A DNA stretch of 64,000 nucleotides from NCBI RefSeq assembly GCF_054482525.1, contig NZ_CM137006.1. One strand, 5' to 3'. Below, one piece after another: positions 13,188 to 48,264 of this stretch. The translations under genes were made by a program, and so were the position numbers. Every line of letters begins with the position of its first letter. The stretch's first letter is position 1. The notes under the pieces are model-generated. The model saw only the letters and a list, made by a program, of their open reading frames with translations, searched no databases and was not told the DNA's origin.

Positions 13188-13204
13188 ATTACCCTAAAGG
13201 TATA
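13188..13204. promoter_or_regulatory. Dyad site O1 (ATTACC-CTAAA-GGTATA), one mismatch
   Basis: Member of the TTACC-N5-GGTAA family, 42 nt upstream of the int start. Confidence 0.5.
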
Positions 13205-13245
13205 CTCTCATACCGTCATGAAAATGGTTTCTATACGGGTGAATT

Positions 13246-14496
13246 GTGCTTACCGATACAAAATTAAAAAACCTCAAGCCGCAGGACAAACTGTACAAGG
13301 TCTCCGATCGTGACGGGCTGTATGTAGCTGTGCTTACGTCAGGCACGGTCTCGTTTCGCTATGACTACCGTATCAACGGTCGTCGCGAAACACTGGTAAT
13401 CGGGCAGTATGGGCGTGACGGTATCAGCCTGGCAGAAGCGCGAGAAGAACTGATTGCTGCAAAGAAGCTGCTTAAAGCAGGCCAGTCGCCGGCTGCGGCT
13501 AAACGTGACGGTATCAAAAAGATTCGTGGTGCCGAGACGTTTGCGGTACATACCGACAGTTATATGAAACACGTCATCCTGGCTGACAGTACCCGCGCAA
13601 TGAAGCAGGCGGTGATTGACCGTGACATACTTCCGGTTCTTGGTAACAAAATGATGGCTGAAATTACCACATCGATGGTTCGTGATTTGTGTGACCGGAT
13701 TGTCGAACGCGGTGGTCGGGCAACAGCAGTACAGGCCAGGGAGATCATCAGCAGCGTATACCGTCACGCCAATGACCGTGGTCATGGTTTGTTTAATCCT
13801 GCGGCTGACATTAAACCTTCGTCTATCGCCATATTTAAACCACGAGAGCGAACACTGACACCAGAAGAAATTGGCCTGTTCTTCCGCACGCTGGATGCCA
13901 TTGGTGCTATGGGCACTATGAAAATGGCTTTAAAGCTGGTGCTTATCACTATGGTTCGTAAAGGCGAATTCACCAACGCAACGTGGGATGAAATAGATTT
14001 TAAAAAATGGACATGGACAATTCCTTCAGACCGCATGAAGGGAAGCCGGGCGCACGTTATTTACCTGCCTAAACAGGCTCAGGATATATTGGTCGGGTTG
14101 CAGATGTGCGCTGGTGGAAGTGAATATCTGGTTCCTGGTCGTTACAATTTCCGGAAGCCATTATCTAATGCCGCGCTGAACTCTCTGATCGACAGAACGG
14201 TGAAAATAATAAATGAAGATGGTGAGCATATTCAGGGCTTCACCGTACACGATATGCGCCGTACAGCCAGTACGTTGTTGCATGAGGCTGGTTATCCTTC
14301 AGACTGGATTGAAAAGGCTCTGGCACATGAGCAGAAAGGTGTGCGCGCCGTATATAACAAAGCGGAATACGCCAGACAGCGCGCCTACATGTTGCAGCAG
14401 TGGGCCGATATGATTGATTCCTGGATTAACGGGGAGCATACGGATCTGATTCCGTTCTCCCCGTCGAAGTTTGAGAAGTGGATGGCGGGGGAATAA
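13246..14496 (+). CDS. int: Tyrosine integrase (P4-type, DUF4102-like N-terminal arm-binding domain)
   Basis: 416 aa with a GTG start. The N-terminus reads LTDTKLKNLKPQDKLYKVSDRDGLYVAV, and catalytic residues appear in HDMRRTASTLL...LAHE...VRAVY. Confidence 0.9.
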   Translation: MLTDTKLKNLKPQDKLYKVSDRDGLYVAVLTSGTVSFRYDYRINGRRETLVIGQYGRDGISLAEAREELIAAKKLLKAGQSPAAAKRDGIKKIRGAETFAVHTDSYMKHVILADSTRAMKQAVIDRDILPVLGNKMMAEITTSMVRDLCDRIVERGGRATAVQAREIISSVYRHANDRGHGLFNPAADIKPSSIAIFKPRERTLTPEEIGLFFRTLDAIGAMGTMKMALKLVLITMVRKGEFTNATWDEIDFKKWTWTIPSDRMKGSRAHVIYLPKQAQDILVGLQMCAGGSEYLVPGRYNFRKPLSNAALNSLIDRTVKIINEDGEHIQGFTVHDMRRTASTLLHEAGYPSDWIEKALAHEQKGVRAVYNKAEYARQRAYMLQQWADMIDSWINGEHTDLIPFSPSKFEKWMAGE

Positions 14497-14499
14497 CGT

Positions 14500-14694
14500 T
14501 TAATAGTTCTGCTGATTTTCTTCCATCTCTGCTTCTGCTGCCAGTGATTCAATTTTGTTTTCGAATATTGCTGACAGTGTTGCAAATTCAGCATCAGTGA
14601 CAGCGGGAATTGGAACAAACCTGATCCCGCTGTGTGCAAGCATGTTTGCAGTTTCAAGGCATTTTCTTAAATCTGCTGGTGATGCCCTGTTCAT
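14500..14694 (-). CDS. Hypothetical 64-aa protein
   Basis: The start MNRASPADLRKCLE overlaps the stop of the methyltransferase gene in an ATGA junction. The longer ORF-track version would overlap the methyltransferase by 124 nt. Confidence 0.5.
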   Translation of the reverse strand: MNRASPADLRKCLETANMLAHSGIRFVPIPAVTDAEFATLSAIFENKIESLAAEAEMEENQQNY

Positions 14695-15341
14695 GCAGCA
14701 CGCTCCCGCCCCTGGTTGTCTGTTGGTGACATCGGAGAATTGCTGAATGCATTTGTTAATCCGCCAATATCCAACGCGTATCCTGGGTGTAGTTGCACTG
14801 CCGGGCCTTCGCACTGGTTACCCCAAACATCGAAGCCATGAGACGTCTGGCGGGCGAACAGTTCAATGCGAGAAACATCGCCTAACAATTGCACAAGTTT
14901 TTCACGAACGACATCTGGTTTTCTTGAATGCTCAAGCCGCGGTGCGGTAAATGACTGAACGATACCTGCATTAATGCGCGGAGGTAGTTTTCCCTTTACT
15001 GCAAACAGGCAATCTTCACTATTGGCGCGAGTCATGTGTCCCATACCCATAACCAGTTTATCTGGTTGTCGACTACCACATTTTATCCACGTGAAGCCCT
15101 TCATGGTCATCAGACGGAATCCCCAGGCTTCAACAACTTTTAGTGCTTCGAGTGGTTGTGTTGGCACCCACCACATGGCCAACAGACAGTTTTCATCGGC
15201 CAAATCCCACACAGGAAGGCGGCAGATATCCAGCACACTCATAACAGGATATTTAAAACCGGCACCGCGATTACCATCTGCGGCTTTGTCCCGGTATACC
15301 CAGGGTGGATCTGCATAGATTAGTGTGTATTTCTTAGTCAT
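14691..15341 (-). CDS. MT-A70-family N6-adenine DNA methyltransferase (orphan)
   Basis: MTKKYTLIYADPPWVYRDK carries the DPPW catalytic motif. The ATG at 15341 overlaps the upstream stop (ATGACTAA). No adjacent restriction gene is seen. Confidence 0.75.
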   Translation of the reverse strand: MTKKYTLIYADPPWVYRDKAADGNRGAGFKYPVMSVLDICRLPVWDLADENCLLAMWWVPTQPLEALKVVEAWGFRLMTMKGFTWIKCGSRQPDKLVMGMGHMTRANSEDCLFAVKGKLPPRINAGIVQSFTAPRLEHSRKPDVVREKLVQLLGDVSRIELFARQTSHGFDVWGNQCEGPAVQLHPGYALDIGGLTNAFSNSPMSPTDNQGRERAA

Positions 15342-15633
15342 AAACCACCCCACAACATCCTATGCCGCTATAGTCGCCACGGCGAAGGCCGTTACCTTTT
15401 GTGATACATTGGTCCCTGCGAACCGCGATCCTTGCACGTTCAACATCACCAGAAGCAACATCCATACACTGAAGCCAAAGGTGAGCGGCAATGCGGAATT
15501 GCCCTTTTTTCTCTCTTTCAATCGCGCGTTTTTCGATCTCTATCGCCGCAGGAGTAACGGCGACAATCTTTGAAGGGCTGCGCATTGAAACCTTGTTCAT
15601 GTGATATTTTTCAAGTCGGCTTAACTTTCTCAC
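15334..15633 (-). CDS. PerC/ANR-like small transcriptional regulator (putative)
   Basis: 99 aa. The core AIEREKKGQFRIAAHLWLQCMDVASGDVERARIAVRRDQC follows the A..E..G..R.AA..W...ER...RR..C pattern that I associate with PerC-family proteins. Confidence 0.45.
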   Translation of the reverse strand: MRKLSRLEKYHMNKVSMRSPSKIVAVTPAAIEIEKRAIEREKKGQFRIAAHLWLQCMDVASGDVERARIAVRRDQCITKGNGLRRGDYSGIGCCGVVYD

Positions 15634-15742
15634 TTAATCCAACCCTCTCTGAAAATTAATGCCAGCAGATAAAGCCATGCTGAAACAGAGGCCAGGAATA
15701 AGTACCATCCTGACCATTTGCTCCAGTGCCTTAGCAGCACAC

Positions 15743-15991
15743 TCATGCAGCGTTGCTCACAGGACGATATACACGTTGCTGAACAGGAGGCTTTTTACCC
15801 TGGAACTCTGCCGGGCTTGCTGCCTGACGTTCATCAAGCCAACGCTCAACTTCATCACGGTTCCATGCGCAGCGTTTATCGGTGATATACCAGCGTTTAG
15901 GAAATTCCCCTGCGCGCTCCATACGGTCGATAGTGCTCCATGACAGTGGCACCACCGCCAGGAGTTCCTTCTTACCTAATGCACCTTTCAT
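15743..15991 (-). CDS. AlpA-family phage regulatory protein / excisionase-like
   Basis: 82 aa. LSWSTIDRMERAGEFPKRWYITDKRCAWNRDEVERWL is typical of AlpA/Xis winged-helix proteins. Confidence 0.7.
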   Translation of the reverse strand: MKGALGKKELLAVVPLSWSTIDRMERAGEFPKRWYITDKRCAWNRDEVERWLDERQAASPAEFQGKKPPVQQRVYRPVSNAA

Positions 15992-16040
15992 AAATACCTC
16001 TCTTGGTTGCAGTGCGGCGCGCGTGGCGCCGCGGTGGTGG

Positions 16041-16922
16041 TTACATAGATGTTTCGTTTAATTCTTCCCGACGAACGCTGTAAACGTCGGTGGCTTTTGC
16101 CAGCAGTTCGTCATCATCTGAAAGTTTTTGTGCAATGTATTTGTAAGCCTTATCCAGTTCGGAGACAGTGCTGTAATTCATCGCTGCGCTGGTAAAGGCC
16201 ATCAGCATTTCTTCTGGCTCACGGCTATCCGCTTTACGCGTTTGCTCATCAGGCTTTTTCACTGATTTAGCGTTGATCAGACTGTTCATTCCCGCAGCCG
16301 TAGTCATTTGCGGAGTAATGTCTCGCTCAACGCGCGGTGCCGTTTCCTGTAATTCGTCAGGGGTGTAAACACCGAGAAGTACATCAGGAGCGTGCAGGCG
16401 AGCCCATCGTTTCGTGCAAAGATAGGCAAGTTGCTGGCGCGGATCCTGTTCCCACAATGGAGAGTTACGCACTCCTGCTTGCGCCATACTGATGGTAAGC
16501 TCACGTGGTTCTGCTTCTCCTTTAAGAACTGCTGACACAGTTACCGTCAGATTCGGTGATTTATCTGTTTTGCCGTTAACATTCGACCAGTCACCGCTCC
16601 AGCGATAATTCAGGCGTGTCGCCAGCAGGCTGGAAGAGGATACGACCGCGTTTACCAACTGTGCTTCGTAGCCTAACGTTCCGTTTACCACATGCGTTTT
16701 CTGCGCCACGGCGAAAGGGTTCATTCCCCACTGTGCCGCCTGCATGGTCACCGCCAGGCAATCGGCAGGTTTGCCTTCAAGATGTTTCGGTACAGTCGCT
16801 TTGCTTTGTGACATCAACTCCGCGAAACGCACCAGTTGATTCATGCCCTCGGGGCTGAAGATTGCCGCAGCAGTGCCTACAGTTGCGCCTGGTTGTGATG
16901 TGATTGCGATATCATTGCTCAT
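16041..16922 (-). CDS. RecT/Bet-family single-strand annealing recombinase
   Basis: 293 aa. It has QAAQWGMNPFAVAQKTHVVNGTLGYEAQLVNAV and is translationally coupled to the exonuclease gene. Confidence 0.6.
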   Translation of the reverse strand: MSNDIAITSQPGATVGTAAAIFSPEGMNQLVRFAELMSQSKATVPKHLEGKPADCLAVTMQAAQWGMNPFAVAQKTHVVNGTLGYEAQLVNAVVSSSSLLATRLNYRWSGDWSNVNGKTDKSPNLTVTVSAVLKGEAEPRELTISMAQAGVRNSPLWEQDPRQQLAYLCTKRWARLHAPDVLLGVYTPDELQETAPRVERDITPQMTTAAGMNSLINAKSVKKPDEQTRKADSREPEEMLMAFTSAAMNYSTVSELDKAYKYIAQKLSDDDELLAKATDVYSVRREELNETSM

Positions 16923-17740: not shown

Positions 17741-18036
17741 GCCGCGTCCCTCTGCCCATCAAGCTGATCAGCCAGATCCCAGCGGGCGATAATTGCCATT
17801 GCCTCGCGCCGGTAGGAATCCATCAGTTCTTCGAACTCAGGGCTGTCTTTAGCTGCTTCCAGCACTTCCTGGCGAACTCCTTTGCCTGTTACAACGTCGA
17901 AAGTTGAGGCCAGTTGATGAAGCCGGATGCTCTCAATCAGTTCAACTTGTCGGTCATATAGCTGTTCTGACAGGCGGTAGTCCTTGTCGAATGCCAGCAT
18001 GATTTTTTGAAGATTTTTCTGCTGATTAACGTTCAT
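17737..18036 (-). CDS. Hypothetical protein
   Basis: The start MNVNQQK is preceded by GGGAGG. The ORF-track start at 18051 lies inside that SD and inside the upstream small ORF. Confidence 0.5.
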   Translation of the reverse strand: MNVNQQKNLQKIMLAFDKDYRLSEQLYDRQVELIESIRLHQLASTFDVVTGKGVRQEVLEAAKDSPEFEELMDSYRREAMAIIARWDLADQLDGQRDAA

Positions 18037-18038
18037 TA

Positions 18039-18191
18039 TCAGCCCTCCCATATCTCGTTATCGTTGGCCACATCGCGAGCTTCTTTGCTGACGAAAGCCC
18101 ACTTAATACCTTCCTGTAAGGTGCGGAACTTCCAGCTCATGAATCCGCATGCAGTAACGCAGTACCAACCGTTGATGATTTTCCACTGCAT
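18039..18191 (-). CDS. Hypothetical 50-aa protein, first gene of the leftward operon
   Basis: MQWKIINGWYCVTACGFMSWKFRTLQEGIKWAFVSKEARDVANDNEIWEG. A GAGGT SD lies 8 nt upstream. It is below the ORF-track size cutoff. Confidence 0.35.
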   Translation of the reverse strand: MQWKIINGWYCVTACGFMSWKFRTLQEGIKWAFVSKEARDVANDNEIWEG

Positions 18192-18209
18192 AACTTGTTA
18201 CCTCGGTTT

Positions 18210-18226
18210 GTTACCGTTGAGGTAAT
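18210..18226. promoter_or_regulatory. Dyad site O2 (GTTACC-GTTGA-GGTAAT)
   Basis: Perfect TTACC-N5-GGTAA just upstream of the first leftward gene. Confidence 0.6.
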
Positions 18227-18271: not shown

Positions 18272-18288
18272 ATTACCCACAAGGTAAT
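18272..18288. promoter_or_regulatory. Dyad site O3 (ATTACC-CACAA-GGTAAT)
   Basis: Perfect dyad. A TTGACA hexamer on the minus strand lies between O3 and O2. Confidence 0.6.
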
Positions 18289-18297: not shown

Positions 18298-18324
18298 AAT
18301 AAAAAAGCCGCCATGAGGCGGCTT
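18298..18324 (-). terminator. Terminator of the repressor gene
   Basis: On the minus strand, AAGCCGCC-tcat-GGCGGCTT is followed by TTTTTTATT. Confidence 0.8.
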
Positions 18325-18344: not shown

Positions 18345-18929
18345 TTATTGTTTGCTTTTTTCGTTCTGGTTGATGACAAATTCAATGTAACTTTCGATCT
18401 TTGCTTTCTCGGTTTCGGGTAACAATGCGTAGCGCGAGCGGTCATAGTTGATAGTCGCAGGGTCGTGCGGGTGAATCAGTAATTCATAGCCGTGACGCCC
18501 GAATGCGGATGCAACATTCTCCAGGGTGGAAATGGAAACGCTGACCTCATTGTTTAACAGGCGGCTGATTGTCACCTGGGCGACGCCGGATGCGCGGTGA
18601 AGTTTTCCCTGTGTTGAAAGGTCGCGGCTTTCGCTCATCCAGCGTTCCAGGTTGTGAGCCGCCAGCTGACCAATGTCGCTTGGGCCGACAGGCTGAAAAC
18701 CTTCCTGAGAAAGCGAGCGATCGATATCAAGCCAGTTACGGGGTTTATTGGCGGCAGCTTCAATTTTTCGCGCAACCTGGTCGCCGATAACCTTCTTACC
18801 AAGAGCCCAGCGGTTTACCAGATTTGCCTGAGTTCCAAGTTTTTCTGCCATCCGCGTCTGAACACCATTGAATTCACGGTCGATCAAGTCGTTGAGATTT
18901 TGCCTGCGGACGTCCTGGATACTTTTCAT
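18345..18929 (-). CDS. Prophage repressor with two XRE-type HTH domains and no S24 peptidase domain
   Basis: 194 aa. HTH 1 reads VQTRMAEKLGTQANLVNRWALGKK and HTH 2 reads LHRASGVAQVTISRLLNNEVSVSISTLENVASAF. It is divergent from a cro-like gene, and no Ala-Gly or Ser...Lys autocleavage module is seen. Confidence 0.7.
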   Translation of the reverse strand: MKSIQDVRRQNLNDLIDREFNGVQTRMAEKLGTQANLVNRWALGKKVIGDQVARKIEAAANKPRNWLDIDRSLSQEGFQPVGPSDIGQLAAHNLERWMSESRDLSTQGKLHRASGVAQVTISRLLNNEVSVSISTLENVASAFGRHGYELLIHPHDPATINYDRSRYALLPETEKAKIESYIEFVINQNEKSKQ

Positions 18930-18983: not shown

Positions 18984-19000
18984 ATTACCCAACAGGTAAA
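18984..19000. promoter_or_regulatory. Dyad site O4 (ATTACC-CAACA-GGTAAA)
   Basis: Perfect dyad in the repressor/cro divergent gap. Confidence 0.6.
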
Positions 19001-19031
19001 TGCACCCCATAGGTAACTATCCTTGATTTTT

Positions 19032-19048
19032 GTTACCTTATGGGTGAA
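19032..19048. promoter_or_regulatory. Dyad site O5 (GTTACC-TTATG-GGTGAA), one mismatch
   Basis: It lies in the spacer of a readable rightward promoter, TTGTTA-17-TATTAT. A lone GGTAAC half-site sits at 19011-19017. Confidence 0.45.
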
Positions 19049-19083: not shown

Positions 19084-19314
19084 ATGAGCGATAACGGACA
19101 TTTCGATTTCAAAAAGCACTGGCTTGCACTTACTCCGGATGAGCGTGAAGCCTTCGCACAGGAAGCCGGAACGACGAGTCACTATATACAGACTCACTTA
19201 ACAGGTAAGCGCAAAATGCCAGGTAAGGTATTGATGAATGGGCTTTTTAAAGCCTGTAAAACAAGACAATGGCTGCGCTCAAAAGCAGAACTGGCATACT
19301 TCTTCTACTCATGA
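19084..19314 (+). CDS. Cro/YdaS-like HTH protein
   Basis: 76 aa with an HTH (EAFAQEAGTTSHYIQTHLTGKR). It is the first rightward gene opposite the repressor. Confidence 0.55.
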   Translation: MSDNGHFDFKKHWLALTPDEREAFAQEAGTTSHYIQTHLTGKRKMPGKVLMNGLFKACKTRQWLRSKAELAYFFYS

Positions 19315-19335: not shown

Positions 19336-19359
19336 AGACCGCCACCCGGCGGTCTTTTC
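19336..19359 (+). terminator. Intrinsic terminator after the cro-like gene (tR1-like)
   Basis: AGACCGCC-accc-GGCGGTCT is followed by TTTTCA. Confidence 0.75.
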
Positions 19360-19368
19360 ATATCTATT

Positions 19369-19385
19369 CGTACCTCAAAGGTAAT
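19369..19385. promoter_or_regulatory. Dyad site O6 (CGTACC-TCAAA-GGTAAT), one mismatch
   Basis: It lies immediately after the terminator and upstream of the replication operon. Confidence 0.5.
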
Positions 19386-19462
19386 AAAAAACCAAATCTG
19401 GTTGATCAAATTTTCCAATTGTGCAAAATAGCCAATATCAATAACAAAAAGGGGCGGAAAAA

Positions 19463-21269: not shown

Positions 21270-21286
21270 GATTACCTGTTGGGTAA
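21270..21286. promoter_or_regulatory. Dyad site O7 (ATTACC-TGTTG-GGTAAT)
   Basis: Perfect dyad. TTACCT (21271-21276), 17 nt, then TCTAAT (21294-21299) reads as a promoter. Confidence 0.6.
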
Positions 21287-21331
21287 TAAAATGTTCTAAT
21301 CTCTATTGATTTCATGTCTTATGTGGTTTTT

Positions 21332-21348
21332 AATTACCTAAGGGGTAA
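21332..21348. promoter_or_regulatory. Dyad site O8 (ATTACC-TAAGG-GGTAAA)
   Basis: Perfect dyad overlapping the RBS of the gene starting at 21352. Confidence 0.55.
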
Positions 21349-21351
21349 ATC

Positions 21352-25215: not shown

Positions 25216-25565
25216 TGGACTATTCACAGTTAAGTGATTTTGAAATTAACAGAATGGTAGGAGACATAATTTTTAAAGGCCTTTGGGCGTGTAAACCGGA
25301 AACATCAGGGAATAACACCAACAAATGGTATTACGGAAATACTGATACAACTTTTGAGCCATTAAACCCTTTACCTGACTACTGCAATAATCCATCGGAT
25401 GCATGGCCTATTATTGTTGATAATAAAATCAGTCTAACCTGCCACCAATCTCGCGGTGAGTGGTCAGCTGTTTTTAATGTCGAGAACATTTGCTTTCATG
25501 CGAATAATCCACTCCGAGCCGCCATGATTGTATTTCTCATGATGCAGGAAAATCAGAATGGCTAA
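25212..25565 (+). CDS. NinX-like (DUF2591) protein
   Basis: 117 aa with the DYCNNPSDAWPII motif. Confidence 0.5.
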   Translation: MMDYSQLSDFEINRMVGDIIFKGLWACKPETSGNNTNKWYYGNTDTTFEPLNPLPDYCNNPSDAWPIIVDNKISLTCHQSRGEWSAVFNVENICFHANNPLRAAMIVFLMMQENQNG

Positions 25566-25896
25566 ATCAGCAGCAGAGCGCAAAGCCGCTCAGAGAGCCA
25601 GACAAGCTGCATCTGGTGTGCGTAAGCTGGAGATTGTGCTTGATGCTCAGGAAATTGAAATGCTTGAGCGTAACTGTGCCGCACGTCGCCCCGGGCGTGC
25701 GCCTTACGAATTTGGTGAGTATATAGCGTTACTGATCCGCCAGGATGATGCACGCGTGCGCGGGCGTATAAAATCGATCAGTAGAAAACGTTGCGGTAAG
25801 TGCGGCGAGAGAGTTCCCGTTAATTCATGCCCGTGTAATGGTGACTCGCAATGCTGGGTGACTAAAGGCTGGTATGAAACGAAATTAATAGTGTGA
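25558..25896 (+). CDS. Hypothetical protein with basic N-terminal helix and C-terminal Cys cluster, last gene before the packaging operon
   Basis: 112 aa with AERKAAQRARQAASGVRKLEIVLD and CGKCGERVPVNSCPCNGDSQC. The stop codon lies inside the palindrome at 25893. Confidence 0.5.
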   Translation: MAKSAAERKAAQRARQAASGVRKLEIVLDAQEIEMLERNCAARRPGRAPYEFGEYIALLIRQDDARVRGRIKSISRKRCGKCGERVPVNSCPCNGDSQCWVTKGWYETKLIV

Positions 25897-25945: not shown

Positions 25946-25971
25946 GCCGCCAACTATGGCGGCTTTATTTT
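25946..25971 (+). terminator. Intrinsic terminator ahead of terS
   Basis: GCCGCC-aactat-GGCGGC is followed by TTTATTTT. Confidence 0.75.
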
Positions 25972-25981
25972 GCATGGTACT

Positions 25982-25998
25982 ATTACCACAACGGTAAC
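25982..25998. promoter_or_regulatory. Dyad site O9 (ATTACC-ACAAC-GGTAAC)
   Basis: Perfect dyad between the terminator and terS. A degenerate repeat, ATTACCACGGTGGTTAT, follows at 26000-26016. Confidence 0.55.
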
Positions 25999-26014
25999 TA
26001 TTACCACGGTGGTT

Positions 26015-26611
26015 ATGATGCCTGCTGAACCTAAAACCTATAAACGCAAATCAACGCAATTTAAGCCACTAACAGCAATGCAGGAGGCTTATTGCCAGTC
26101 ATACATCAAAACGCCTGAAAACCAGACTCAGGCAGCGATTAACGCAGGATTCTCCCCAAATACAGCGGCAGTTAAAGCCAGTGTCATGATGCGCGATGAA
26201 CGCATTCAGAAACGGATTGCCGAGTTGATGGAGGAGCGCAACAAACGAATGCGCGTCAGTGCTGATTACGTTCTCATGCGCCTGGTGGAGATCGACCAGA
26301 TGGACGTTATCGACATCCTCAACGACGATGGGAGCCTTAAACCAATCCGTGAGTGGCCGAAAATCTGGCGCACTACGCTTAGTGGCTTTGATCTGTCATC
26401 GACCATCATGAACATGAACGAGGATTCGATAGAGACAATCCTCAAAAAAATTAAATGGCCTGACAAGGTGAAGAACCTTGAGCTGATTGGTAAGCATGTT
26501 GATGTCAATGCGTTCAAAGAACGTCTGGATGTTAATGTGAATGTGACAATTGCTGATCGCATAGCGGCAGCCAGGAAGAGACTGAAAGAACGTCAGGATG
26601 GCAATCAGTGA
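26015..26611 (+). CDS. terS: Terminase small subunit
   Basis: The start is taken at MMPAEPK. The ORF-track TTG start at 25937 would run through the terminator and operator. The region LTAMQEAYCQSYIKTPENQTQAAINAGFSPNTAAVKASVMMRDERIQKRI is Terminase_2-like. Confidence 0.7.
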   Translation: MMPAEPKTYKRKSTQFKPLTAMQEAYCQSYIKTPENQTQAAINAGFSPNTAAVKASVMMRDERIQKRIAELMEERNKRMRVSADYVLMRLVEIDQMDVIDILNDDGSLKPIREWPKIWRTTLSGFDLSSTIMNMNEDSIETILKKIKWPDKVKNLELIGKHVDVNAFKERLDVNVNVTIADRIAAARKRLKERQDGNQ

Positions 26612-28173: not shown

Positions 28174-28596
28174 CTAGAAAATAATTTCATCAAATGCAGC
28201 ATTTATTGCCTTTGCTTCGCTAATGGCGCCTTGTTTATCGACAATAGCTTTTTTACCAAGCACCTCGGCAAGGCACTGTAGCTTCATGTTGTATAAGTGT
28301 TCGCTCATGTAATCATTATCACTTTTTGCTTTAGCGCAAACAGAGCGAGAAATATCAAACACATCGCCTTTTTCCATTTCAGAACGTTGTGCTGTTATCC
28401 AGTCATGGAACGTAACGCTAGTACCATGGTCTTCGCTAAGAGTTAACCCGGTCAGTCCCTCACTCTGAATTACTTCGTAATGCATTTCATTACCAGCAAA
28501 AACGCCATAAAAAACGCAGTCTTCAGCCTGAACGATACGAGAATATTTTAATGGCCATTCATTTAGATACTTAGCCAACATATCAATTGTTTTCAT
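28174..28596 (-). CDS. Hypothetical 140-aa protein (reverse-strand moron, visibly AT-rich)
   Basis: A clean ORF with SD AAGGTGAGATC before the ATG. I recognise no motif in it. Its orientation is opposite to the packaging and structural genes. Confidence 0.6.
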   Translation of the reverse strand: MKTIDMLAKYLNEWPLKYSRIVQAEDCVFYGVFAGNEMHYEVIQSEGLTGLTLSEDHGTSVTFHDWITAQRSEMEKGDVFDISRSVCAKAKSDNDYMSEHLYNMKLQCLAEVLGKKAIVDKQGAISEAKAINAAFDEIIF

Positions 28597-28794: not shown

Positions 28795-28871
28795 TGGCGC
28801 GGCATGCAGGATTCGAACCTGCGACCAACCGCTTAGAAGGCGGTTGCTCTGTCCAACTGAGCTAATGCCAC
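28795..28871 (-). tRNA. tRNA-Arg (anticodon UCU), 77 nt with encoded CCA
   Basis: Hand-folded cloverleaf: acceptor GTGGCAT/ATGCCGC, D arm GCTC-AGTTGGACA-GAGC, anticodon arm ACCGC-CTTCTAA-GCGGT, T arm GCAGG-TTCGAAT-CCTGC, discriminator G, then CCA. Confidence 0.85.
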
Positions 28872-29192: not shown

Positions 29193-29209
29193 GTTACCTG
29201 AAAGGTAAT
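29193..29209. promoter_or_regulatory. Dyad site O10 (GTTACC-TGAAA-GGTAAT)
   Basis: Perfect dyad between the leftward tRNA unit and the rightward structural operon. Confidence 0.55.
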
Positions 29210-29298
29210 AATTCGTGCGTTAAATGTCAACTGTCTACGATAAATAAATCATATGTGGTTAAATTGGTAATAATTTAATTGCGTACGGAGTCATTGAT

Positions 29299-35005: not shown

Positions 35006-37476
35006 TGGCTATCAGTTGGATCCAGCCCAGCTTTGCCGGTGGTGAGATTGGACCGTCGTTGTACGGACGTATCGACATGGCGAAGTACCAGGTGGCATTG
35101 CGCAAGTGCGATAACTTTATCGTGCGGCAGTATGGCGGCGTTGAGAATCGACCTGGTACGCGTTTTGTCGGTGCCGCCAAATACCCAAATCGGAAATGCC
35201 GCCTGATCCCGTTCCAGTTCTCGACGGTTCAGACCTATGCTCTGGAGTTCGGACACCAGTACATGCGCGTTATCAAAGATGGTGCGTTGGTGCTGAACAG
35301 CAGCAATGTTATTTATGAAATTGCCACGCCATATACTGAAGCCGATCTGTTCCGAATTAAATTTACGCAAAGCGCCGACGTGCTTACGCTGGTTCACCCG
35401 GCATACCCGCCGAAAGAGTTGCGCCGCTATGCGCATGACAACTGGCAACTGGTTGATGTGGTAACGAAGAACGGGCCATTTGAAGATATCAATATTGACG
35501 AGTCAGTGACGGTTTATGCCAGCGCCAGCACTGGGACAATTACGTTAACGGCAAGCGCCTCTATTTTTGGCGCGGAGCAGGTAGGCAAATTGTTCTATCT
35601 GGAACAGCCTGCAGTGGATTCTGTGCCGGTATGGGAAACCAGTAAGAGTACGTCGATTGGCGATATTCGCCGTGCAGACAGTAACTACTATCGCGCCGTT
35701 ACAGCAGGAAAAACAGGCACTTTGCGCCCTTCGCATACAGAAGGCACATCATGGGATGGCTGGGGCGGATCCGGTGATGATGATACTGGCATTGAGTGGG
35801 AGTATCTGCACAGTGGTTTTGGCATTGCCCGTATAACTGCTGTAAATGGCACTACTGCAACTGCTGAGGTGATTTCCTATATCCCTTCGCAGGTCGTTGG
35901 CGAGGATAATGCCAGCTATAAATGGGCTAAATATGCCTGGAACAGTGTTAATGGTTATCCTGGCACTGTTGTTTATTATCAACAACGTCTTTACTTCGCC
36001 GCATCGACTGCGTTCCCTCAGACTATCTGGGCCAGCCGTACTGGGGATTATAAGGATTTTGGCAAAAGCAATCCTACGCAGGATGACGACAGAATTATCT
36101 ACACCTATGCCGGGCGTCAGGTTAATGAGATCCGCCACCTGATTGATGTTGGTTCGCTGGTGGCGCTGACTTCCGGAGGTGAGTATGTCATCACCGGCGA
36201 CCAGAACAAAGTGTTAACCCCATCATCATTTGCATTCAGCTCTCAGGGATCAAATGGCTCAAGCAACGTCCCGCCAATTGCCGTGGCGAATATTGCTTTG
36301 TTCGTCCAGGAGAAAGGCAGTGTTGTACGTGATCTGGCCTACTCATTCGATGTTGACGGCTATCAGGGGAACGACCTGACCATCCTTGCCAATCATCTTT
36401 TTCAGAAGCACAGCATTGTTGACTGGTGCTTCTCGATTGTCCCTTACTCCAGCGCCTTCTGCATTCGTGATGACGGTAAATTGCTGGTGATGACCTATTT
36501 GCGTGATCAGCAGGTTTTTGCATGGGCACCACAATCCAGTACCGGGAAATATGAAAGCACATGCAGTATCAGCGAAGGCAATGAAGATGCGGTGTATTTC
36601 GTCGTTAACCGAACCGTTAACGGGCAAACAGTGAGATACATAGAGCGACTGTCCAGCCGTTTATTTACCAGCGATGAAGATGCTTTCTTTGTTGATTCTG
36701 GCCTTAGCTATGATGGAAGAAATACGTCTGACAGAACGATGACCATCACTGGTGGTTCTGGTGAATGGGATTACCGCGCGGAATATACAATCAGTATTTC
36801 TGGTGGTGCGTACTTCACCAGTAGTGATGTCGGTGCGCAACTACAATTCCCTTATACCGGAACTGATCCTGATACTGGCGATGAAGTGTCAAAAGAATTA
36901 CGTTGCGACATTATTTCTGTAACCAGCAATACCGCTGTAGTGGTTCGTCCTAACAGGAACGTCCCATCATCCCTCAGGAATGTGGCCACCACGAACTGGC
37001 AGATGGCGCGCCGGACATTTGGAGGCCTGTCTCATCTTGAAGGCCAGATCGTAAACATTCTCTCTGATGCGAACGTGGAACCACAGAAAGTTGTTTCCGG
37101 AGGTGCCGTCACGCTGGAATCTCCGGGGGCTGTAGTGCACATCGGCCTGCCAATAACTGCTGAATTCGAAACACTGGATATCAACATTAGCGGACAGGAA
37201 ACGCTGCTGGACAAAAAACAGGTGATCCCGTCCGTTACTCTGGTTGTGAATGCCAGTCGCGGCATCTGGGCGACTACGCCCGGCGGTAAATGGTACGAAT
37301 ATCCACAGCGTGAATTCGAGTTCTACGATGATCCTGTTGATGATGCTACCGGAAAAGTAGAAGTGAAACTGGACAGTAACTGGGGCAAAAACGGGCGTGT
37401 AAAAATCCGTCAGCTTGACCCGTTGCCGCTGTCTGTTCTTGCCGTTATTCCTCGCCTTACTGTTGGGGGAGTCTGA
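35005..37476 (+). CDS. Tail tubular protein B-like (nozzle)
   Basis: 823 aa. The call is based on position and size. Confidence 0.45.
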   Translation: MAISWIQPSFAGGEIGPSLYGRIDMAKYQVALRKCDNFIVRQYGGVENRPGTRFVGAAKYPNRKCRLIPFQFSTVQTYALEFGHQYMRVIKDGALVLNSSNVIYEIATPYTEADLFRIKFTQSADVLTLVHPAYPPKELRRYAHDNWQLVDVVTKNGPFEDINIDESVTVYASASTGTITLTASASIFGAEQVGKLFYLEQPAVDSVPVWETSKSTSIGDIRRADSNYYRAVTAGKTGTLRPSHTEGTSWDGWGGSGDDDTGIEWEYLHSGFGIARITAVNGTTATAEVISYIPSQVVGEDNASYKWAKYAWNSVNGYPGTVVYYQQRLYFAASTAFPQTIWASRTGDYKDFGKSNPTQDDDRIIYTYAGRQVNEIRHLIDVGSLVALTSGGEYVITGDQNKVLTPSSFAFSSQGSNGSSNVPPIAVANIALFVQEKGSVVRDLAYSFDVDGYQGNDLTILANHLFQKHSIVDWCFSIVPYSSAFCIRDDGKLLVMTYLRDQQVFAWAPQSSTGKYESTCSISEGNEDAVYFVVNRTVNGQTVRYIERLSSRLFTSDEDAFFVDSGLSYDGRNTSDRTMTITGGSGEWDYRAEYTISISGGAYFTSSDVGAQLQFPYTGTDPDTGDEVSKELRCDIISVTSNTAVVVRPNRNVPSSLRNVATTNWQMARRTFGGLSHLEGQIVNILSDANVEPQKVVSGGAVTLESPGAVVHIGLPITAEFETLDINISGQETLLDKKQVIPSVTLVVNASRGIWATTPGGKWYEYPQREFEFYDDPVDDATGKVEVKLDSNWGKNGRVKIRQLDPLPLSVLAVIPRLTVGGV

Positions 37477-45277: not shown

Positions 45278-45286
45278 GGAAGTGTT

Positions 45287-45460
45287 GTGTTTTTAATTAT
45301 TTTGAGTGTGATAATTTCTGGTGGATTGTTATTTATTGACCGCTACAAATATTTTCTTAACCCTCAGACTCAAGCTATTTGCTGGTTCATCTTTGTTGTG
45401 CAGGGAGTAGTTCTTGTTGCAAGCCTTATTGAGGGGAGGCCTCTTATTTTTACTGGGTAA
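45287..45460 (+). CDS. 57-aa two-TM membrane protein (hypothetical)
   Basis: The GTG start has AAGGAAG 4 nt upstream. The sequence is VFLIILSVIISGGLLFIDRYKYFLNPQTQAICWFIFVVQGVVLVASLIEGRPLIFTG. It is below the ORF-track cutoff. Confidence 0.35.
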   Translation: MFLIILSVIISGGLLFIDRYKYFLNPQTQAICWFIFVVQGVVLVASLIEGRPLIFTG

Positions 45461-45472
45461 ATAGGTGACTAC

Positions 45473-45769
45473 ATGCAAGCTATAGGATTCATTGTTTATA
45501 TCGTCGTTGGTCTTTTTCAGTTGGCAGCAATTATGGCTGGGCTTGAATCATGGTGGGGATTGCACTGGATAATTGCAGCCCCCATTGCTTTCATCGTGAG
45601 CTATATTCCATTTGTTGGAGCGATTGTTGGTATGGTTGGCGCTGTGGATGTATGGCGGTGGGAGTGGTGGCAGGCTGGCCTTCTCTTCTTTGGTGGGATC
45701 ATCTTTGCTATTGTCTGCGGTGGAATGTCATCATTTTTCGAATGGCTATCATTCAGAAAAGGGACGTGA
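45473..45769 (+). CDS. 98-aa polytopic membrane protein (hypothetical)
   Basis: It has three to four hydrophobic segments and is Trp-rich (VDVWRWEWWQAG). Confidence 0.55.
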   Translation: MQAIGFIVYIVVGLFQLAAIMAGLESWWGLHWIIAAPIAFIVSYIPFVGAIVGMVGAVDVWRWEWWQAGLLFFGGIIFAIVCGGMSSFFEWLSFRKGT

Positions 45770-45777
45770 CATGTCAC
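45766..45777. repeat. Palindrome GTGACATGTCAC, copy 3
   Basis: It overlaps the stop codon of the 98-aa gene and directly abuts a terminator. Confidence 0.7.
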
Positions 45778-45802
45778 AGGCCGCTTTCGCGGCCTTGTTT
45801 TT
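45778..45802. terminator. Terminator at the end of the structural operon, shared with the convergent small gene
   Basis: AGGCCGC-tttc-GCGGCCT is followed by TGTTTTT. Confidence 0.75.
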
Positions 45803-45962
45803 AACGAATGCCACCGCCGCCCGGACGGGAATCCGCAGAACGCCCACCGCAGCGGGAGCCGTCAGCGGCAGTATCGCTGTCGTGCTGACAACGACCGGCA
45901 AAGGCCTGAGTTGAAGCTACCAGAGACAACAAAACGAACAGTGCAGCAAATGCTTTTTTCAT
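45801..45962 (-). CDS. Secreted 53-aa pre-peptide (signal peptide plus 31-aa Gly/Arg/Asp-rich, two-Cys mature part)
   Basis: MKKAFAALFVLLSLVASTQAFA | GRCQHDSDTAADGSRCGGRSADSRPGGGGIR. The longer GTG start at 46034 would begin inside the upstream terminator. Confidence 0.45.
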   Translation of the reverse strand: MKKAFAALFVLLSLVASTQAFAGRCQHDSDTAADGSRCGGRSADSRPGGGGIR

Positions 45963-46034
45963 TGTGAAATTTCCATCTATAAGCCACCTCAATGTGGCGT
46001 CAATGAGTGTAGCACTGACTTTTGTTTCGTCCAC

Positions 46035-46055
46035 AAAAAATCCCGCAGCGCGGGC
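46035..46055 (-). terminator. Terminator after the YafO-like gene
   Basis: On the minus strand, CCCGC-gct-GCGGG is followed by ATTTTTTG. Confidence 0.5.
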
Positions 46056-46601
46056 TTATTCCTTCCATTTATCAGAAAAAAGATCTTCTTCTAAAGGCAT
46101 TGGTTCTGTTTTTGTTTTCTCAAAGAATTGATAACTGATAGTGATTGCTGCCTCTTTAAACTCTTCTTGCTCAGTTATGTTGTGGGCATCTGCGTCAACA
46201 AAAAACATAACCAGCGCATCACGATTGTGATTTACCGAATAAACTAAAAAGCAATTACTTGTTGGTATGCATTTTACTTGCACAGACGCTATTTTTTTCC
46301 ATGCATCCCAAGATGATTTTTTACCAGTGTGTTTTTTATCACTATCTTCTGGAATATAGTCTTGGTTATCGACATGAGTATGCCTGACATTTAGTTTAAG
46401 CATTTCTGTCGGACGAGCAAATGCAGCATCTTTACCAAGAGATGGATGGTATCCCGTTTTCCAATACTGGGTAAAGGCATCAGATACTTTCTTCAGCTCA
46501 AGATCAGATGCACAAAGGGCCGAGAAATTTTGCGTATGCAATACTCGACCCTTATATCTGACAATTTGATTTTTATCATTCTGCGACGCAGACGAACTCA
46601 T
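46056..46601 (-). CDS. YafO-like toxin domain protein (putative ribosome-dependent mRNA interferase)
   Basis: It starts at MSSSASQ after AAGGAAAATT. The pattern F.QYWKTGYHPSLGKDAAF....LKLNVRHTHV...TSNCFLVYSVNHNRDALVMFFVDADAHN parallels the E. coli YafO pattern F.SYKRDGVLPDIFGRDALY...VAHIHL...DEAHLVYCQG...AWLLIAILKPEPH. Confidence 0.45.
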   Translation of the reverse strand: MSSSASQNDKNQIVRYKGRVLHTQNFSALCASDLELKKVSDAFTQYWKTGYHPSLGKDAAFARPTEMLKLNVRHTHVDNQDYIPEDSDKKHTGKKSSWDAWKKIASVQVKCIPTSNCFLVYSVNHNRDALVMFFVDADAHNITEQEEFKEAAITISYQFFEKTKTEPMPLEEDLFSDKWKE

Positions 46602-46755
46602 AATTTTCCTTATTGTTACGAGAATCAAAGAAAGCGCGGGATACGCGACTTGCGTGATCTTTTGTCATAGTAACTTTTACGCACTCTACGCTTCCATTGA
46701 AAGAACGTCTTGCGGCAGCTTGCGCTCTACGCATCTGCAATTTTTCGTTTCGCAT
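46576..46755 (-). CDS. 59-aa basic protein upstream of and overlapping the YafO-like gene (candidate antitoxin/regulator)
   Basis: MRNEKLQMRRAQAAARRSFNGSVECVKVTMTKDHASRVSRAFFDSRNNKENYEFVCVAE. A GAGGT SD lies 6 nt upstream, and it overlaps the downstream start by 26 nt. Confidence 0.3.
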   Translation of the reverse strand: MRNEKLQMRRAQAAARRSFNGSVECVKVTMTKDHASRVSRAFFDSRNNKENYEFVCVAE

Positions 46756-46781
46756 GACATTACCTCATATCTCATAAGTTC

Positions 46782-46810
46782 ATTACACGGATTAATAAAA
46801 ATGAAACCAA
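46782..46810 (-). promoter_or_regulatory. Candidate sigma70 promoter of the YafO-like operon (TTGGTT-17-TGTAAT)
   Basis: Read on the minus strand. The dyad O11 lies 4 nt upstream of the -35. Confidence 0.4.
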
Positions 46811-46814
46811 TCCG

Positions 46815-46831
46815 TTTACCCTTGAGGTAAT
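46815..46831. promoter_or_regulatory. Dyad site O11 (TTTACC-CTTGA-GGTAAT)
   Basis: Perfect TTACC-N5-GGTAA. Confidence 0.55.
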
Positions 46832-46867
46832 AGTACGCTATTCACCCACAGTCTGCAATCTGTACAG

Positions 46868-46894
46868 AATTATTTAAAGGCACATCCCTGTGCC
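46868..46894 (-). terminator. Hairpin after the Bro-N gene
   Basis: On the minus strand, GGCACA-ggga-TGTGCC is followed by TTTAAATAATT. Confidence 0.45.
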
Positions 46895-46902
46895 GCCGCC
46901 CG

Positions 46903-47598
46903 TCAGAAGAACCCTGCCTTGTCGTTGATGTACTCCGCGTGCGTCTGGATATCACGCAGGCATTTGCTCACACCGACGATGTAGCAGAACATGGTGGTCA
47001 GCTCCGCCGCCGCGCCCGATACGTCGTGCCCGTCGTCCTGTAACTGGTTCAGCAGATTCATCAGCAGTGAGTTCTCCGTCAGGCCGAGAACACCAGACGG
47101 CGAATGAATCAGGCTGCGGTAGCCGGGCTTCAGTGGGGCACTGTAGGTTTTGTTCTCTATCTTCATCGCCTGCATCACTGCTGATGCTGTGGCGTTGGCT
47201 ACCTGGTCGGCAACCATCTTTATGCGCTCTTCCTGCGGGAGCGAGTTTTTAATGTAACTTCCGGTGCGGCGGATCTGAGGAAGAACCTCACCTGTAACCC
47301 ATTTACGAAAGCGGTATGGGATAGTGCCTGGTGTCACTGCGTCGCGGCAGCGGAGGATCAGTGTGTAGAGGCCTGACTCGGAGATGATGATCGATTCTTG
47401 CTCACCGCCAGGGGTGTCGGTTGAAGCGACGCCCTTCTCATCATCATCAAGTTTTCGAACAGCATCTCGATGGTTTGCTATGCCTATAGCCCGACAAACA
47501 TCTGAAGCGATAAACCATGGCTCACCATTAATGACGATTACTCGTATATCGGCTTGGGATTCGAAAGAAAAAATGGACGTGCTTTTTGTAGCTGTCAT
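46903..47598 (-). CDS. Bro-N domain antirepressor-like protein
   Basis: 231 aa. The N-terminus FESQADIRVIVINGEPWFIASDVCRAIGIANHRDAVRKLDDDEKGV is a typical Bro-N domain. The C-terminal 70 aa are paralogous to the ORF at 47914-48186. Confidence 0.7.
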   Translation of the reverse strand: MTATKSTSIFSFESQADIRVIVINGEPWFIASDVCRAIGIANHRDAVRKLDDDEKGVASTDTPGGEQESIIISESGLYTLILRCRDAVTPGTIPYRFRKWVTGEVLPQIRRTGSYIKNSLPQEERIKMVADQVANATASAVMQAMKIENKTYSAPLKPGYRSLIHSPSGVLGLTENSLLMNLLNQLQDDGHDVSGAAAELTTMFCYIVGVSKCLRDIQTHAEYINDKAGFF

Positions 47599-47754
47599 AG
47601 TGGTTACCTTTTAGTCTGGTTAATCACCACTACCGACGCCAATCGGTTGGTGGTGAGCTGTGCAGGGTTGGCGTAACCGGCTAAAAGGACCCGGCGCACC
47701 TTTCGGTGCCCCCACACAGCCCACCATAATACGAATGTGGCCGTGCTATACGCA

Positions 47755-47776
47755 TAAAAAAACCGCTTGCGCGGTG
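47755..47776 (-). terminator. Intrinsic terminator inside the Ant leader
   Basis: On the minus strand, ACCGC-gcaa-GCGGT is followed by TTTTTTTT. Confidence 0.65.
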
Positions 47777-47875
47777 AATGCGCCTTTTAGTAATCCGGGA
47801 CGCCAATCCCGGCACTGGATTTTGCCAGTGCCCGATTACTATGGCACAAGAGGAGTGCGATGTAAATTTACCGCA
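47755..47875 (-). ncRNA. Predicted short leader transcript (about 120 nt) from the operator-overlapped promoter to the intrinsic terminator
   Basis: The promoter at 47882-47910 and the terminator at 47755-47776 are on the same strand. In between lie the hairpins GGCACTGG/CCAGTGCC (47811-47832) and CCGGGA-cgccaa-TCCCGG (47795-47812). Confidence 0.3.
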
Positions 47876-47883
47876 AAGGTAAA
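47867..47883. promoter_or_regulatory. Dyad site O12 (TTTACC-GCAAA-GGTAAA)
   Basis: Perfect dyad covering the predicted start site of the promoter at 47882-47910. Confidence 0.6.
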
Positions 47884-47910
47884 TATAAGCACTTCATTTG
47901 GTAATTGCAA
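47882..47910 (-). promoter_or_regulatory. Sigma70 promoter TTGCAA-17-TATATT (Ant leader promoter)
   Basis: On the minus strand, the -35 is TTGCAA (47905-47910), the spacer is 17 nt, and the -10 is TATATT (47882-47887). Confidence 0.55.
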
Positions 47911-47913
47911 ACC

Positions 47914-48186
47914 TTATCTGGTTTGTTTTCGTAATTGTTCGGCACAATAGTCGAGATGTGTTTGCAGATCCTGCATAGACATCTGTGAGCTGGTGACGTA
48001 GTTAATCAGTGCAGTCAGTTCGGCAAGTGGGCCATCGACATTAAATCCATCCTTATCTAGATCCCGGAGTAATTTCATCAAGTGCGATCCCTCCACCAGT
48101 GACTTGACGCCTCCCGGCGTGTGAATCCTTTCGGTAAATCCGTCTTCCAGTGGATAGTGATACTGCTGCATCTTAATCTTCTCCAT
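47914..48186 (-). CDS. Small LexA-controlled protein homologous to the Ant C-terminal domain (candidate SOS antirepressor)
   Basis: A 90-aa ORF. The likely real start is the ATG at 48171 (85 aa), 9 nt after GGAG. IHTPGGVKSLVEGSHLMKLLRDLDKDGFNVDGPLAELTALINYV...MQDLQTHLDY aligns with Ant IHSPSGVLGLTENSLLMNLLNQLQDDGHDVSGAAAELTTMFCYI...LRDIQTHAEY. Confidence 0.6.
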   Translation of the reverse strand: MEKIKMQQYHYPLEDGFTERIHTPGGVKSLVEGSHLMKLLRDLDKDGFNVDGPLAELTALINYVTSSQMSMQDLQTHLDYCAEQLRKQTR

Positions 48187-48193
48187 GCAATAA

Positions 48194-48209
48194 CTGTATA
48201 TTTATACAG
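48194..48209. promoter_or_regulatory. LexA (SOS) box CTGTATATTTATACAG
   Basis: Perfect CTGT-N8-ACAG with an all-A/T spacer inside TAACTGTATATTTATACAGTAT. On the minus strand it contains a TATAAA -10 candidate. Confidence 0.8.
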
Positions 48210-48247
48210 TATCAAATAATTTGTTTGCTATCCAGCACGTTTTGCAA

Positions 48248-48264
48248 ATTACCTAAAAGGTAAT
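48248..48264. promoter_or_regulatory. Dyad site O13 (ATTACC-TAAAA-GGTAAT)
   Basis: Perfect dyad overlapping the rightward promoter TTACCT (48249-48254), 17 nt, TATATT (48272-48277) for the tailspike gene. Confidence 0.6.

Follow-up and report, generated by a model that had tools for sequence, protein, structure and literature searches.

Dispersed 17-bp dyads, well supported as operators of the Rep repressor, in a phiV10-type prophage inserted in guaA

The DNA analysed here is a stretch of 64,000 nucleotides (nt) from contig NZ_CM137006.1 of assembly GCF_054482525.1, hereinafter designated the window. It contains a 40.5-kb prophage of the phiV10/epsilon15 type (genus Uetakevirus), which is inserted in guaA and extends from 13039 to 53600. 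Over most of its length, the prophage DNA is 96–99.6% identical to Escherichia phages HEMP4, ZX5, TL-2011b, and phiV10. More distant relatives are Enterobacter phage Tyrion, Klebsiella phages, and Salmonella phages epsilon15, SPN1S, and SPC32H, all of the same genus. The attachment core at the left boundary matches the core given for phiV10, epsilon15, and ZX5 (PMC9782041). A 17-bp dyad with the consensus (A/G/T)TTACC-N5-GGTAA(T/A/C) recurs through the prophage. A preliminary description of the window had placed it at nearly every transcription unit, which is supported by the present analysis, with the lysis unit as an exception. The dyad is considered here together with the repressor gene rep, the divergent cro-like gene, and the antirepressor gene ant (Table 1).

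The window contains 10 perfect copies of TTACC-N5-GGTAA, compared with 0.01 expected from dinucleotide shuffles, and 17 matches with at most one mismatch, compared with 1.3 expected. Every perfect copy falls within the prophage. Control DNA of 218 kb, comprising the host flanks of the window, two 50-kb pieces of E. coli chromosome, and two unrelated phages, contains no perfect copy and 10 one-mismatch copies, equivalent to 1.85 per 40.5 kb. The preliminary description had listed 13 copies and had named a similar density in host DNA as the outcome that would speak against them; all 13 are present, 10 of them perfect, and the control has none of that quality. Six one-mismatch copies are located in the prophage. 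Those at 13188, 19032, 19369, and 26000 are conserved in position; the other two, at 48480 and 51807, are within coding DNA, in line with the background rate.

With a palindromic weight matrix derived from the 13 sites, each of them scores at least 17 and the next best sequence 12; as regards the three imperfect sites, this gap is partly circular. These three (13188, 19032, and 19369) are backed independently, as they occur at the same places in phiV10, the prophage of E. coli TO6, Tyrion, epsilon15, SPC32H, and Klebsiella phage BUCT711. Eleven of the start coordinates given earlier are right, and two, 21270 and 21332, are corrected by one to 21271 and 21333. The earlier list was not the full set either, as degenerate tandem copies at 19001 and 26000 had been overlooked; the full map therefore comprises 15 sites.

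For real genes, all copies lie in gaps free of open reading frames, as had been stated. The statement would fail only if terS starts at TTG 25937 (the start in phiV10 and of PGAP; 224 amino acids, aa), which would enclose a terminator and the operators at 25982 and 26000. The ATG at 26018 (197 aa, as in epsilon15 terS) is more likely the true start. Two sites had been reported to directly follow intrinsic terminators. Both terminators, 19336–19355 and 25946–25963, were confirmed, and the same order is found at 18272, which follows the rep terminator (18324–18305).

The dyads are positioned in a recurrent manner relative to promoter elements. Specifically, at four sites (18210, 21333, 46815, and 47867) a TTGnnn hexamer lies exactly 17 bp before a −10-like hexamer, the last two bases of which are the first two bases of the operator. 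A TTG-N3-N17-(−10) element adjoining the operator is present in 4 of the 26 site-orientations, compared with 0.2% of comparable prophage positions (P 2e-7) and 0.9% of positions in the same gaps (P 1e-4). The terS operator is a fifth such site, with the extended −10 TGgTACTAT (TGtTACTAT in epsilon15), which fits a promoter without −35 directly after terminator 25946–25963. The arrangement of −10 and operator recurs in other lineages, also for the extended −10 of terS. At these five promoters (PL, DUF1064, terS, YafO-like, and Bro-N) the operator stretches from about −8 to +9 and is thus in a repressing position. The site at 46815 had been placed upstream of a −35 and suggested to be activating; it instead lies at about −8 to +9 relative to a conserved minus-strand promoter, an arrangement that is the same in TO6. 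The Bro-N operator is conserved in phiV10, TO6, Tyrion, and BUCT711.

Other sites are positioned differently. At the cro-like gene, the operator at 19032 fills the promoter spacer downstream of the conserved TTGATT. The adjacent O_R2 is degenerate in the window, and its orthologue is perfect in epsilon15, SPC32H, and BUCT711. A second operator is found 62 bp upstream at both the PL and the DUF1064 promoter. The operator at 29193 adjoins a leftward promoter that faces the tRNA-Arg gene (28795–28871), and no −10-like element of the portal operon lies closer than about 70 bp downstream of it. At 48248, the adjoining palindromic TTGCAA can act as a −35 of ant, and the conserved GGTAATAGAAT of the tailspike leader follows the operator at a distance of about 65 bp. 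The copy at 19369 has an odd CGTACC half, which is kept in E. coli and Enterobacter phages. Of three sigma70 promoters described previously as overlapping dyads, the one at 47882–47910 was found by our scan; those at 48249–48277 and 21271–21299 are under threshold and not conserved, and the conserved DUF1064 promoter is 21306–21334.

Table 1. Positions of the dyads and associated features in the window
Feature	Position	Strand	Remarks
attL core ATTGAGTGGGAATGATT	13039–13055	+	guaA 3' end; left prophage boundary
Int arm-type site GTGACGGTAT	13180–13189	+	overlaps int-proximal dyad by 2 nt; inverted copy at 13210–13218
int-proximal dyad ATTACCCTAAAGGTATA	13188–13204		right half imperfect; inside attL P' arm; operator-like, halves kept in relatives
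O_L1, PL-proximal operator	18210–18226		perfect; adjoins −10 of minus-strand PL promoter TTGACA-17-AATCAT
O_L2, PL-distal operator	18272–18288		perfect; 62 bp from O_L1, just past rep terminator
intrinsic terminator after rep	18305–18324	−	O_L2 directly next
rep	18345–18929	−	194-aa repressor; helix-turn-helix (HTH) N-terminal domain and tetramerising C-terminal domain; 5D50_A match
O_R3	18984–19000		perfect; rep/cro gap
O_R2 TGCACCCCATAGGTAAC	19001–19017		degenerate middle operator; matrix score 12.2; adjoins O_R3
O_R1	19032–19048		one mismatch; in spacer of promoter of cro-like gene
cro-like gene	19084–19314	+	76 aa; phrog_35 'transcriptional repressor' match
intrinsic terminator after cro-like gene	19336–19355	+	
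post-cro operator CGTACCTCAAAGGTAAT	19369–19385		after terminator 19336–19355, ahead of replication genes; position conserved
second motif, post-cro leader	19390–19403		
DUF1064 distal operator	21271–21287		perfect; 62 bp from proximal copy
second motif, DUF1064 leader	21315–21328		
DUF1064 proximal operator	21333–21349		perfect; adjoins −10 of plus-strand TTGATT-17-TTTAAT (21306–21334); overlaps ribosome-binding site
intrinsic terminator after last early gene	25946–25963	+	precedes terS operator
terS operator	25982–25998		perfect; after terminator 25946–25963; adjoins extended −10 TGgTACTAT (25975–25983)
weak tandem copy ATTACCACGGTGGTTAT	26000–26016		beside terS operator; kept in phiV10, TO6, Tyrion, epsilon15
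operator between tRNA-Arg unit and portal operon	29193–29209		perfect; adjoins −10 of leftward TAGACA-18-AATTAT (29208–29237)
second motif, portal leader	29247–29260		
YafO-like cassette operator	46815–46831		perfect; about −8 to +9 of minus-strand TTGCAG-17-TACTAT (46830–46858)
Bro-N gene operator	47867–47883		perfect; adjoins −10 of minus-strand TTGCAA-17-TATATT (47882–47910)
ant	47914–48186	−	small antirepressor, 90 aa; 5D50_E match
LexA box CTGTATATTTATACAG	48194–48209		8 bp upstream of ant start codon; perfect CTGT-N8-ACAG, AT-rich centre
operator in divergent ant/tailspike gap	48248–48264		perfect; adjoins palindromic −35-like TTGCAA (48242–48247)
second motif, tailspike leader	48290–48303		
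second motif, lysis leader	51612–51625		
attR core	53584–53600	+	one mismatch; right prophage boundary

The seven genomes scanned, namely the window and the six relatives named above, derive from four host genera. Each has 8–11 perfect copies, and the map positions are shared. Alignment of 13 positional classes gives pairwise mismatch rates of 6% for the half-sites, 43% for the 5-bp spacer, and 34% for the 12-bp flanks. Half-sites that are kept while spacer and flanks drift are the signature of a dimeric DNA-binding protein. Distant Rep relatives led to three extra loci, located in a Serratia prophage that has a different integrase, in an E. coli prophage, and in a metagenomic contig. In all three, TTACC-N5 tops a pattern-free count of 5-N(3–7)-5 dyads, with 6–7 copies, and no other dyad exceeds 3. 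Perfect copies number 6–11 in each of the ten Rep-bearing genomes or loci, and the two unrelated phages scanned have none. The spacers at 18272, 21271, 21333, and 48248 differ from those of phiV10 and TO6 though the DNA is about 97% identical overall (CACAA versus CGTTA at O_L2), and operator spacers seem to change faster than the surrounding DNA.

The distances between paired sites are conserved as well. The 62-bp distance between O_L1 and O_L2 recurs in six other Rep-bearing genomes that were checked, and the value in BUCT711 is 63 bp. A third copy occurs 75 bp away in epsilon15 and SPC32H, and the two copies left of rep in the Serratia prophage are separated by 75 bp. The DUF1064 pair is spaced by 62 bp in all eight genomes that have it (the seven scanned and locus L012); loci L011 and L013 have adjoining copies 18 bp apart at this position and not the 62-bp pair. 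In the window, adjoining copies with spacings of 17–18 bp are found at 18984/19001 and 25982/26000.

The product of 18345–18929, previously put forward as a double-HTH repressor and as the binder, is a full-length homologue of the crystallised SPC32H Rep. A phmmer search of the PDB returned 5D50_A with an E value of 3.5e-42 over residues 1–190, and 5D4Z_A, which comprises the C-terminal domain only, with 3.6e-20. Identity to SPC32H Rep is 43% overall, 53% in the N-terminal domain, and 39% in the C-terminal domain. The product of ant matches 5D50_E ('Anti-repressor protein') with an E value of 1.3e-46 over 83 aligned residues and few differences. The Bro-N gene had been called Ant earlier; the SOS-controlled antirepressor is instead the small gene at 47914–48186, labelled simply as an SOS gene at that time. 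In work by Kim and Ryu from 2013, Rep is reportedly not cleaved and ant is reportedly under LexA control. SPC32H Rep is described as a tetramer that binds palindromic DNA, with DNA-binding pairs drawn from different dimers, and tetrameric Ant as breaking the Rep tetramer apart (PMC9638917).

Previous annotation points to the same protein. The epsilon15 record AY150271.2 contains eight features designated 'protein_bind: repressor, lysogeny' with the sequence ATTACC-N5-GGTAAT, in agreement with the operator named in the preliminary description. The annotated sites are located before terS, the portal operon, and the RuvC operon, in the gap between gp19 and the tailspike gene, and, three of them, left of the repressor gene. 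None of these sites is annotated in the phiV10 record. On the basis of homology, prior annotation, conservation, and promoter geometry, the reading that the dyads are operators of the repressor encoded at 18345–18929 is well supported.

The Rep-Ant-LexA scheme with dispersed Rep operators is, with high probability, the best explanation of these observations. In the lysogen, Rep would sit on operators at almost every prophage promoter and silence the units one by one. Like its SPC32H homologue, Rep would be a tetramer with two DNA-binding pairs, and one tetramer could bridge each 62-bp operator pair. At PL, DUF1064, terS, YafO-like, and Bro-N, Rep bound at about −8 to +9 would block RNA polymerase. 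Induction would proceed without cleavage of Rep. Specifically, DNA damage would cause LexA to leave its box on the ant promoter, Ant would then be made and take Rep off the DNA, and the guarded units would open together.

Several observations weigh against this scheme or against the part assigned to Rep in it. Rep is just 43% identical to the SPC32H Rep that has been studied, and it is the most diverged core protein, with 43–45% identity to the proteins of Salmonella and Klebsiella phages compared with 59–94% for the Cro-like, AlpA-like, PerC-like, and Ant proteins. The block N36-L37-V38-N39-R40-W41 (NLVNRW) in the N-terminal HTH is invariant across five Uetakevirus lineages aligned, which fits an invariant half-site; relatives with NLVSRW, or with NLISRW and a 5-aa insertion, nevertheless keep the same dyad, and no covariation was found. 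The assignment to Rep, and not for example to the Cro-like protein, thus rests on homology and annotation. The portal, tailspike, and post-cro operators are not positioned to occlude the downstream unit, and the lysis unit of the window has no operator within two mismatches (51143–51700). Ant is 62–86% identical across relatives though the C-terminal domain of its partner Rep is poorly conserved, and phages of different host genera may share immunity specificity because the half-sites are identical despite the divergence of Rep.

The int-proximal copy, ATTACCCTAAAGGTATA, is constrained in the same way as the other operators, since its halves ATTACC and GGTATA are kept with five different spacers (CTAAA, TTAAA, ATTAC, CCAAA, and TTATC) among relatives. 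The Serratia prophage, whose integrase is a different one, lacks it. The 10-mer GTGACGGTAT that overlaps it is annotated four times as 'integrase' binding in the epsilon15 record, and further arm-type copies are found at 13415, at 13505 (within int), and at 53503 (attR arm). The conserved deviation GGTATAct yields TATACT, which is a good −10. Most simply, Rep would cover the int promoter; Rep in the arm could possibly also interfere with Int binding, and perhaps with excision. The epsilon15 record does not mark the int-proximal copy as a repressor site.

A second motif, approximately CCATATrTGGTT, accompanies the dyads at positions conserved in every lineage examined, and it is a perfect palindrome, AACCATATATGGTT, in phiV10 and Tyrion. 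There are 7 matches in the window compared with 1.8 expected. The motif is located 7 nt upstream of TAATAA in the portal leader, TAATAG in the tailspike leader, and TATAAT in the lysis leader, all of which are without a recognisable −35. It begins 4 nt past the post-cro operator, where it merges into TTGATC, and it also occurs in the spacers of the PL and DUF1064 promoters. The contrast with the flanks is modest (20% versus 29% mismatch), with the right half TGGTT best kept.

In the lysis region, a small extra gene (51179, ATG, to 51463) is followed by the lysis genes from 51675. In epsilon15, phiV10, SPC32H, and Tyrion, an operator is present in the corresponding lysis leader. A hairpin without a T-run (about 51469–51490) lies between the tailspike gene and the lysis genes. 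As noted before, no N- or Q-family antiterminator is detectable among the early genes with Pfam, PHROGs, and NCBIfam. The further proposal that each operon is gated singly, with no cascade, is not supported: the lysis unit is without an operator, the portal and tailspike operators sit some 70 bp upstream of the −10-like elements, and the late leaders carry the second motif.

Several identities were considered for the second motif and its reader. The last early gene (25558–25896; phrog_536 'transcriptional regulator', widespread in enterobacterial prophages) encodes a 112-aa protein with a predicted strand-helix-helix followed by a Cys-rich tail with invariant C79, C82, C91, C93, and C99. Its AlphaFold2 model has a pLDDT of 58 (low confidence), and no match was found in Pfam, NCBIfam, or the PDB. 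It was rejected as the binder of the motif and late activator because the gene is also present in ZF40, Chlobot, and N15, all without the motif. The AlpA-family gene was rejected as a Q-like antiterminator, as P. aeruginosa AlpA is a different, larger protein; the 82-aa PF05930 protein is more likely an excisionase-type regulator. An RNA hairpin does not account for the motif, since a partner sequence is present in the tailspike leader of the window alone (48320–48330) and is not conserved. By-eye comparison with sigma-54, DnaA-box, IHF, and CRP sites gave no fit. A literature search for the string of either motif returned unrelated primer matches only.

The second motif bears directly on a rival account in which the Rep operators are a lysogeny lock only. 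A second regulator acting at the second motif would time the lytic units, which would amount to a cascade, and the late units would need positive control or antitermination. The conserved placement of the motif at the portal, tailspike, lysis, and post-cro leaders and in the PL and DUF1064 spacers, its excess over expectation, and the late leaders without −35 are consistent with such a regulator. So is the lysis leader of the window, which has the second motif and no Rep operator, as an unguarded constitutive lysis promoter would kill. However, none of the candidates examined, the phrog_536 gene included, could be tied to the motif, its contrast with the flanks is weak, its distance to the −10-like hexamers varies among units, and the lysis genes may be read through from the Rep-guarded tailspike promoter. 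We consider this account a genuine contender whose chances are below even. A two-key design, in which a Rep operator is combined at most lytic units with a second element read by a further phage regulator, possibly the Cro-like protein, is proposed tentatively. The second element would act in the spacers of early promoters, next to TTGATC of the replication leader, and upstream of the late −10-like hexamers, so that a single factor could lower the early units and raise the late units. This design would also explain a lysis unit without a Rep operator.

Some copies (19369, 25982, 18272, and 21271, and also 29193 and 48248) might be roadblocks or insulators against read-through, or looping anchors, rather than promoter operators. 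The order of terminator and then operator is found four times, phiV10 is annotated with a terminator at the orthologous place, the 62-bp spacing is retained for both pairs by nearly every genome (63 bp at PL of BUCT711), and the portal and tailspike operators are about 70 bp upstream of −10-like elements. On the other hand, 25982 adjoins a conserved extended −10, and 29193 and 48248 adjoin promoter elements of the divergent units (minus-strand AATTAT, and TTGCAA next to ant). The dyad is also symmetric, while stoperators are orientation-dependent, and we regard the idea as doubtful. Binding of the dyad mainly by another conserved protein, for example the 76-aa Cro-like protein, or by Rep and Cro together as in lambda, would fit half-sites that stay identical while Rep falls to 43% identity and alters its putative recognition helix, and the Cro-like protein is better conserved (59–84% identity across lineages). 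Nevertheless, it is improbable: homologous SPC32H Rep is reported to bind palindromic operator DNA (PMC9638917), the epsilon15 annotators gave the sites to the repressor, and Cro on every late promoter would block lytic growth. Least probable, and very unlikely in our view, is that the repeats are chiefly module-boundary sequences for recombination between related phages, with regulation secondary. The variable cassettes (YafO, Bro-N, and the extra TO6 gene) are each bracketed by copies, and the spacers differ even between 97%-identical phages; but a 17-bp sequence with a free spacer provides very little homology, and protein binding is the reading favoured by the constant promoter geometry and by half-sites that are selectively conserved.

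Under the preferred Rep-Ant-LexA scheme, control would extend to accessory cassettes. The minus-strand cassette at 45801–46755 consists of a 59-aa gene (46576–46755), a YafO-family toxin-like gene (46056–46628; Pfam E 7.6e-5, under the gathering score), and a gene for a 77-aa membrane-associated protein (45801–46034). As all three are behind the operator-covered promoter, these genes are probably off in the lysogen and switched on by induction. In the TO6 prophage (L003, 36312–36420), an extra plus-strand gene (36441–37169) between Bro-N and ant has its own perfect operator at 36405, and the variable cassettes each seem to bring an operator with them.

The Bro-N leader is about 270 nt long (predicted start near 47875, start codon 47598; region 47599–47913). 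It contains a minus-strand terminator-like hairpin (47775–47762) followed by T7, which may be an attenuator, and a second promoter-like site, TTTACA-17-CATAGT (47866–47838), follows the Bro-N operator. Two minus-strand terminator-like hairpins (28751–28716 and 28631–28616) are located between the tRNA-Arg gene and a Gp49-family gene (28174–28596). The latter is without its own Rep operator, and its expression may differ from that of the other units.

Compared with public annotation, the 15-site map of the phiV10 group, the rep/cro triple, and the copy in the int/attL arm are new. So are the arrangement of a −10 adjoining the operator, the 62-bp pairs, and operator control of the YafO-like and Bro-N cassettes. 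Together these suggest a flat design, in which one antirepressor-sensitive repressor would act directly on about a dozen promoters, those of mobile cargo included and probably that of the integrase too. Prophages of the phiV10 type in guaA are common and include ones in O157 and O103 strains. The map could be used to annotate guaA prophages and predict their inducibility, to inform phiV10-based reporter phages, and to choose sites for Rep binding assays. The second motif is the most interesting loose end.

The layout can be compared with several known systems. The window shares with lambda a triple operator separating the divergent repressor and cro-like genes, as well as operators at PL; lambda, however, has two operator regions and an N/Q cascade, whereas the window has about ten guarded regions and no detectable N/Q homologue. 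In phage P1, the C1 repressor holds separate units through many dispersed operators and is inactivated by an antirepressor rather than cleaved. The window resembles P1 in both respects. P1 differs in its asymmetric 17-mer operators, in C1, which is unrelated in sequence, and in its known late activator Lpa. In mycobacteriophage L5, stoperators are orientation-dependent and often inside operons, and some stop transcription arriving from upstream. Multiple asymmetric operators are described for the L5/L1 repressor (PMC1934351). The window shares with L5/L1 the large number of repressor sites per genome; its sites differ from stoperators in being symmetric dyads, of which all conserved copies are intergenic.

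The closest systems are those of SPC32H and epsilon15. SPC32H has full-length homologues of Rep and Ant, a LexA box on the ant promoter, and the same dyad at the same positions. The window differs in that its Rep is 43% identical and that an extra Bro-N gene and a toxin cassette are under operators. With epsilon15, both half-sites of the dyad are identical and the scattered placement is shared. The epsilon15 sequence holds unannotated copies as well: a rep/cro triple (33340, 33357, and 33387), and copies in the lysis leader (24703), as a second pre-RuvC site (35968), and next to int (26881). The window adds the YafO-like and Bro-N cassette copies and is without the copy in the lysis leader. 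The dispersed-operator layout is thus already annotated for epsilon15. Judged by its genes and sites, the system of the window belongs to the known epsilon15/SPC32H Rep-Ant-LexA switch with dispersed operators, and the established view of that switch is unchanged.

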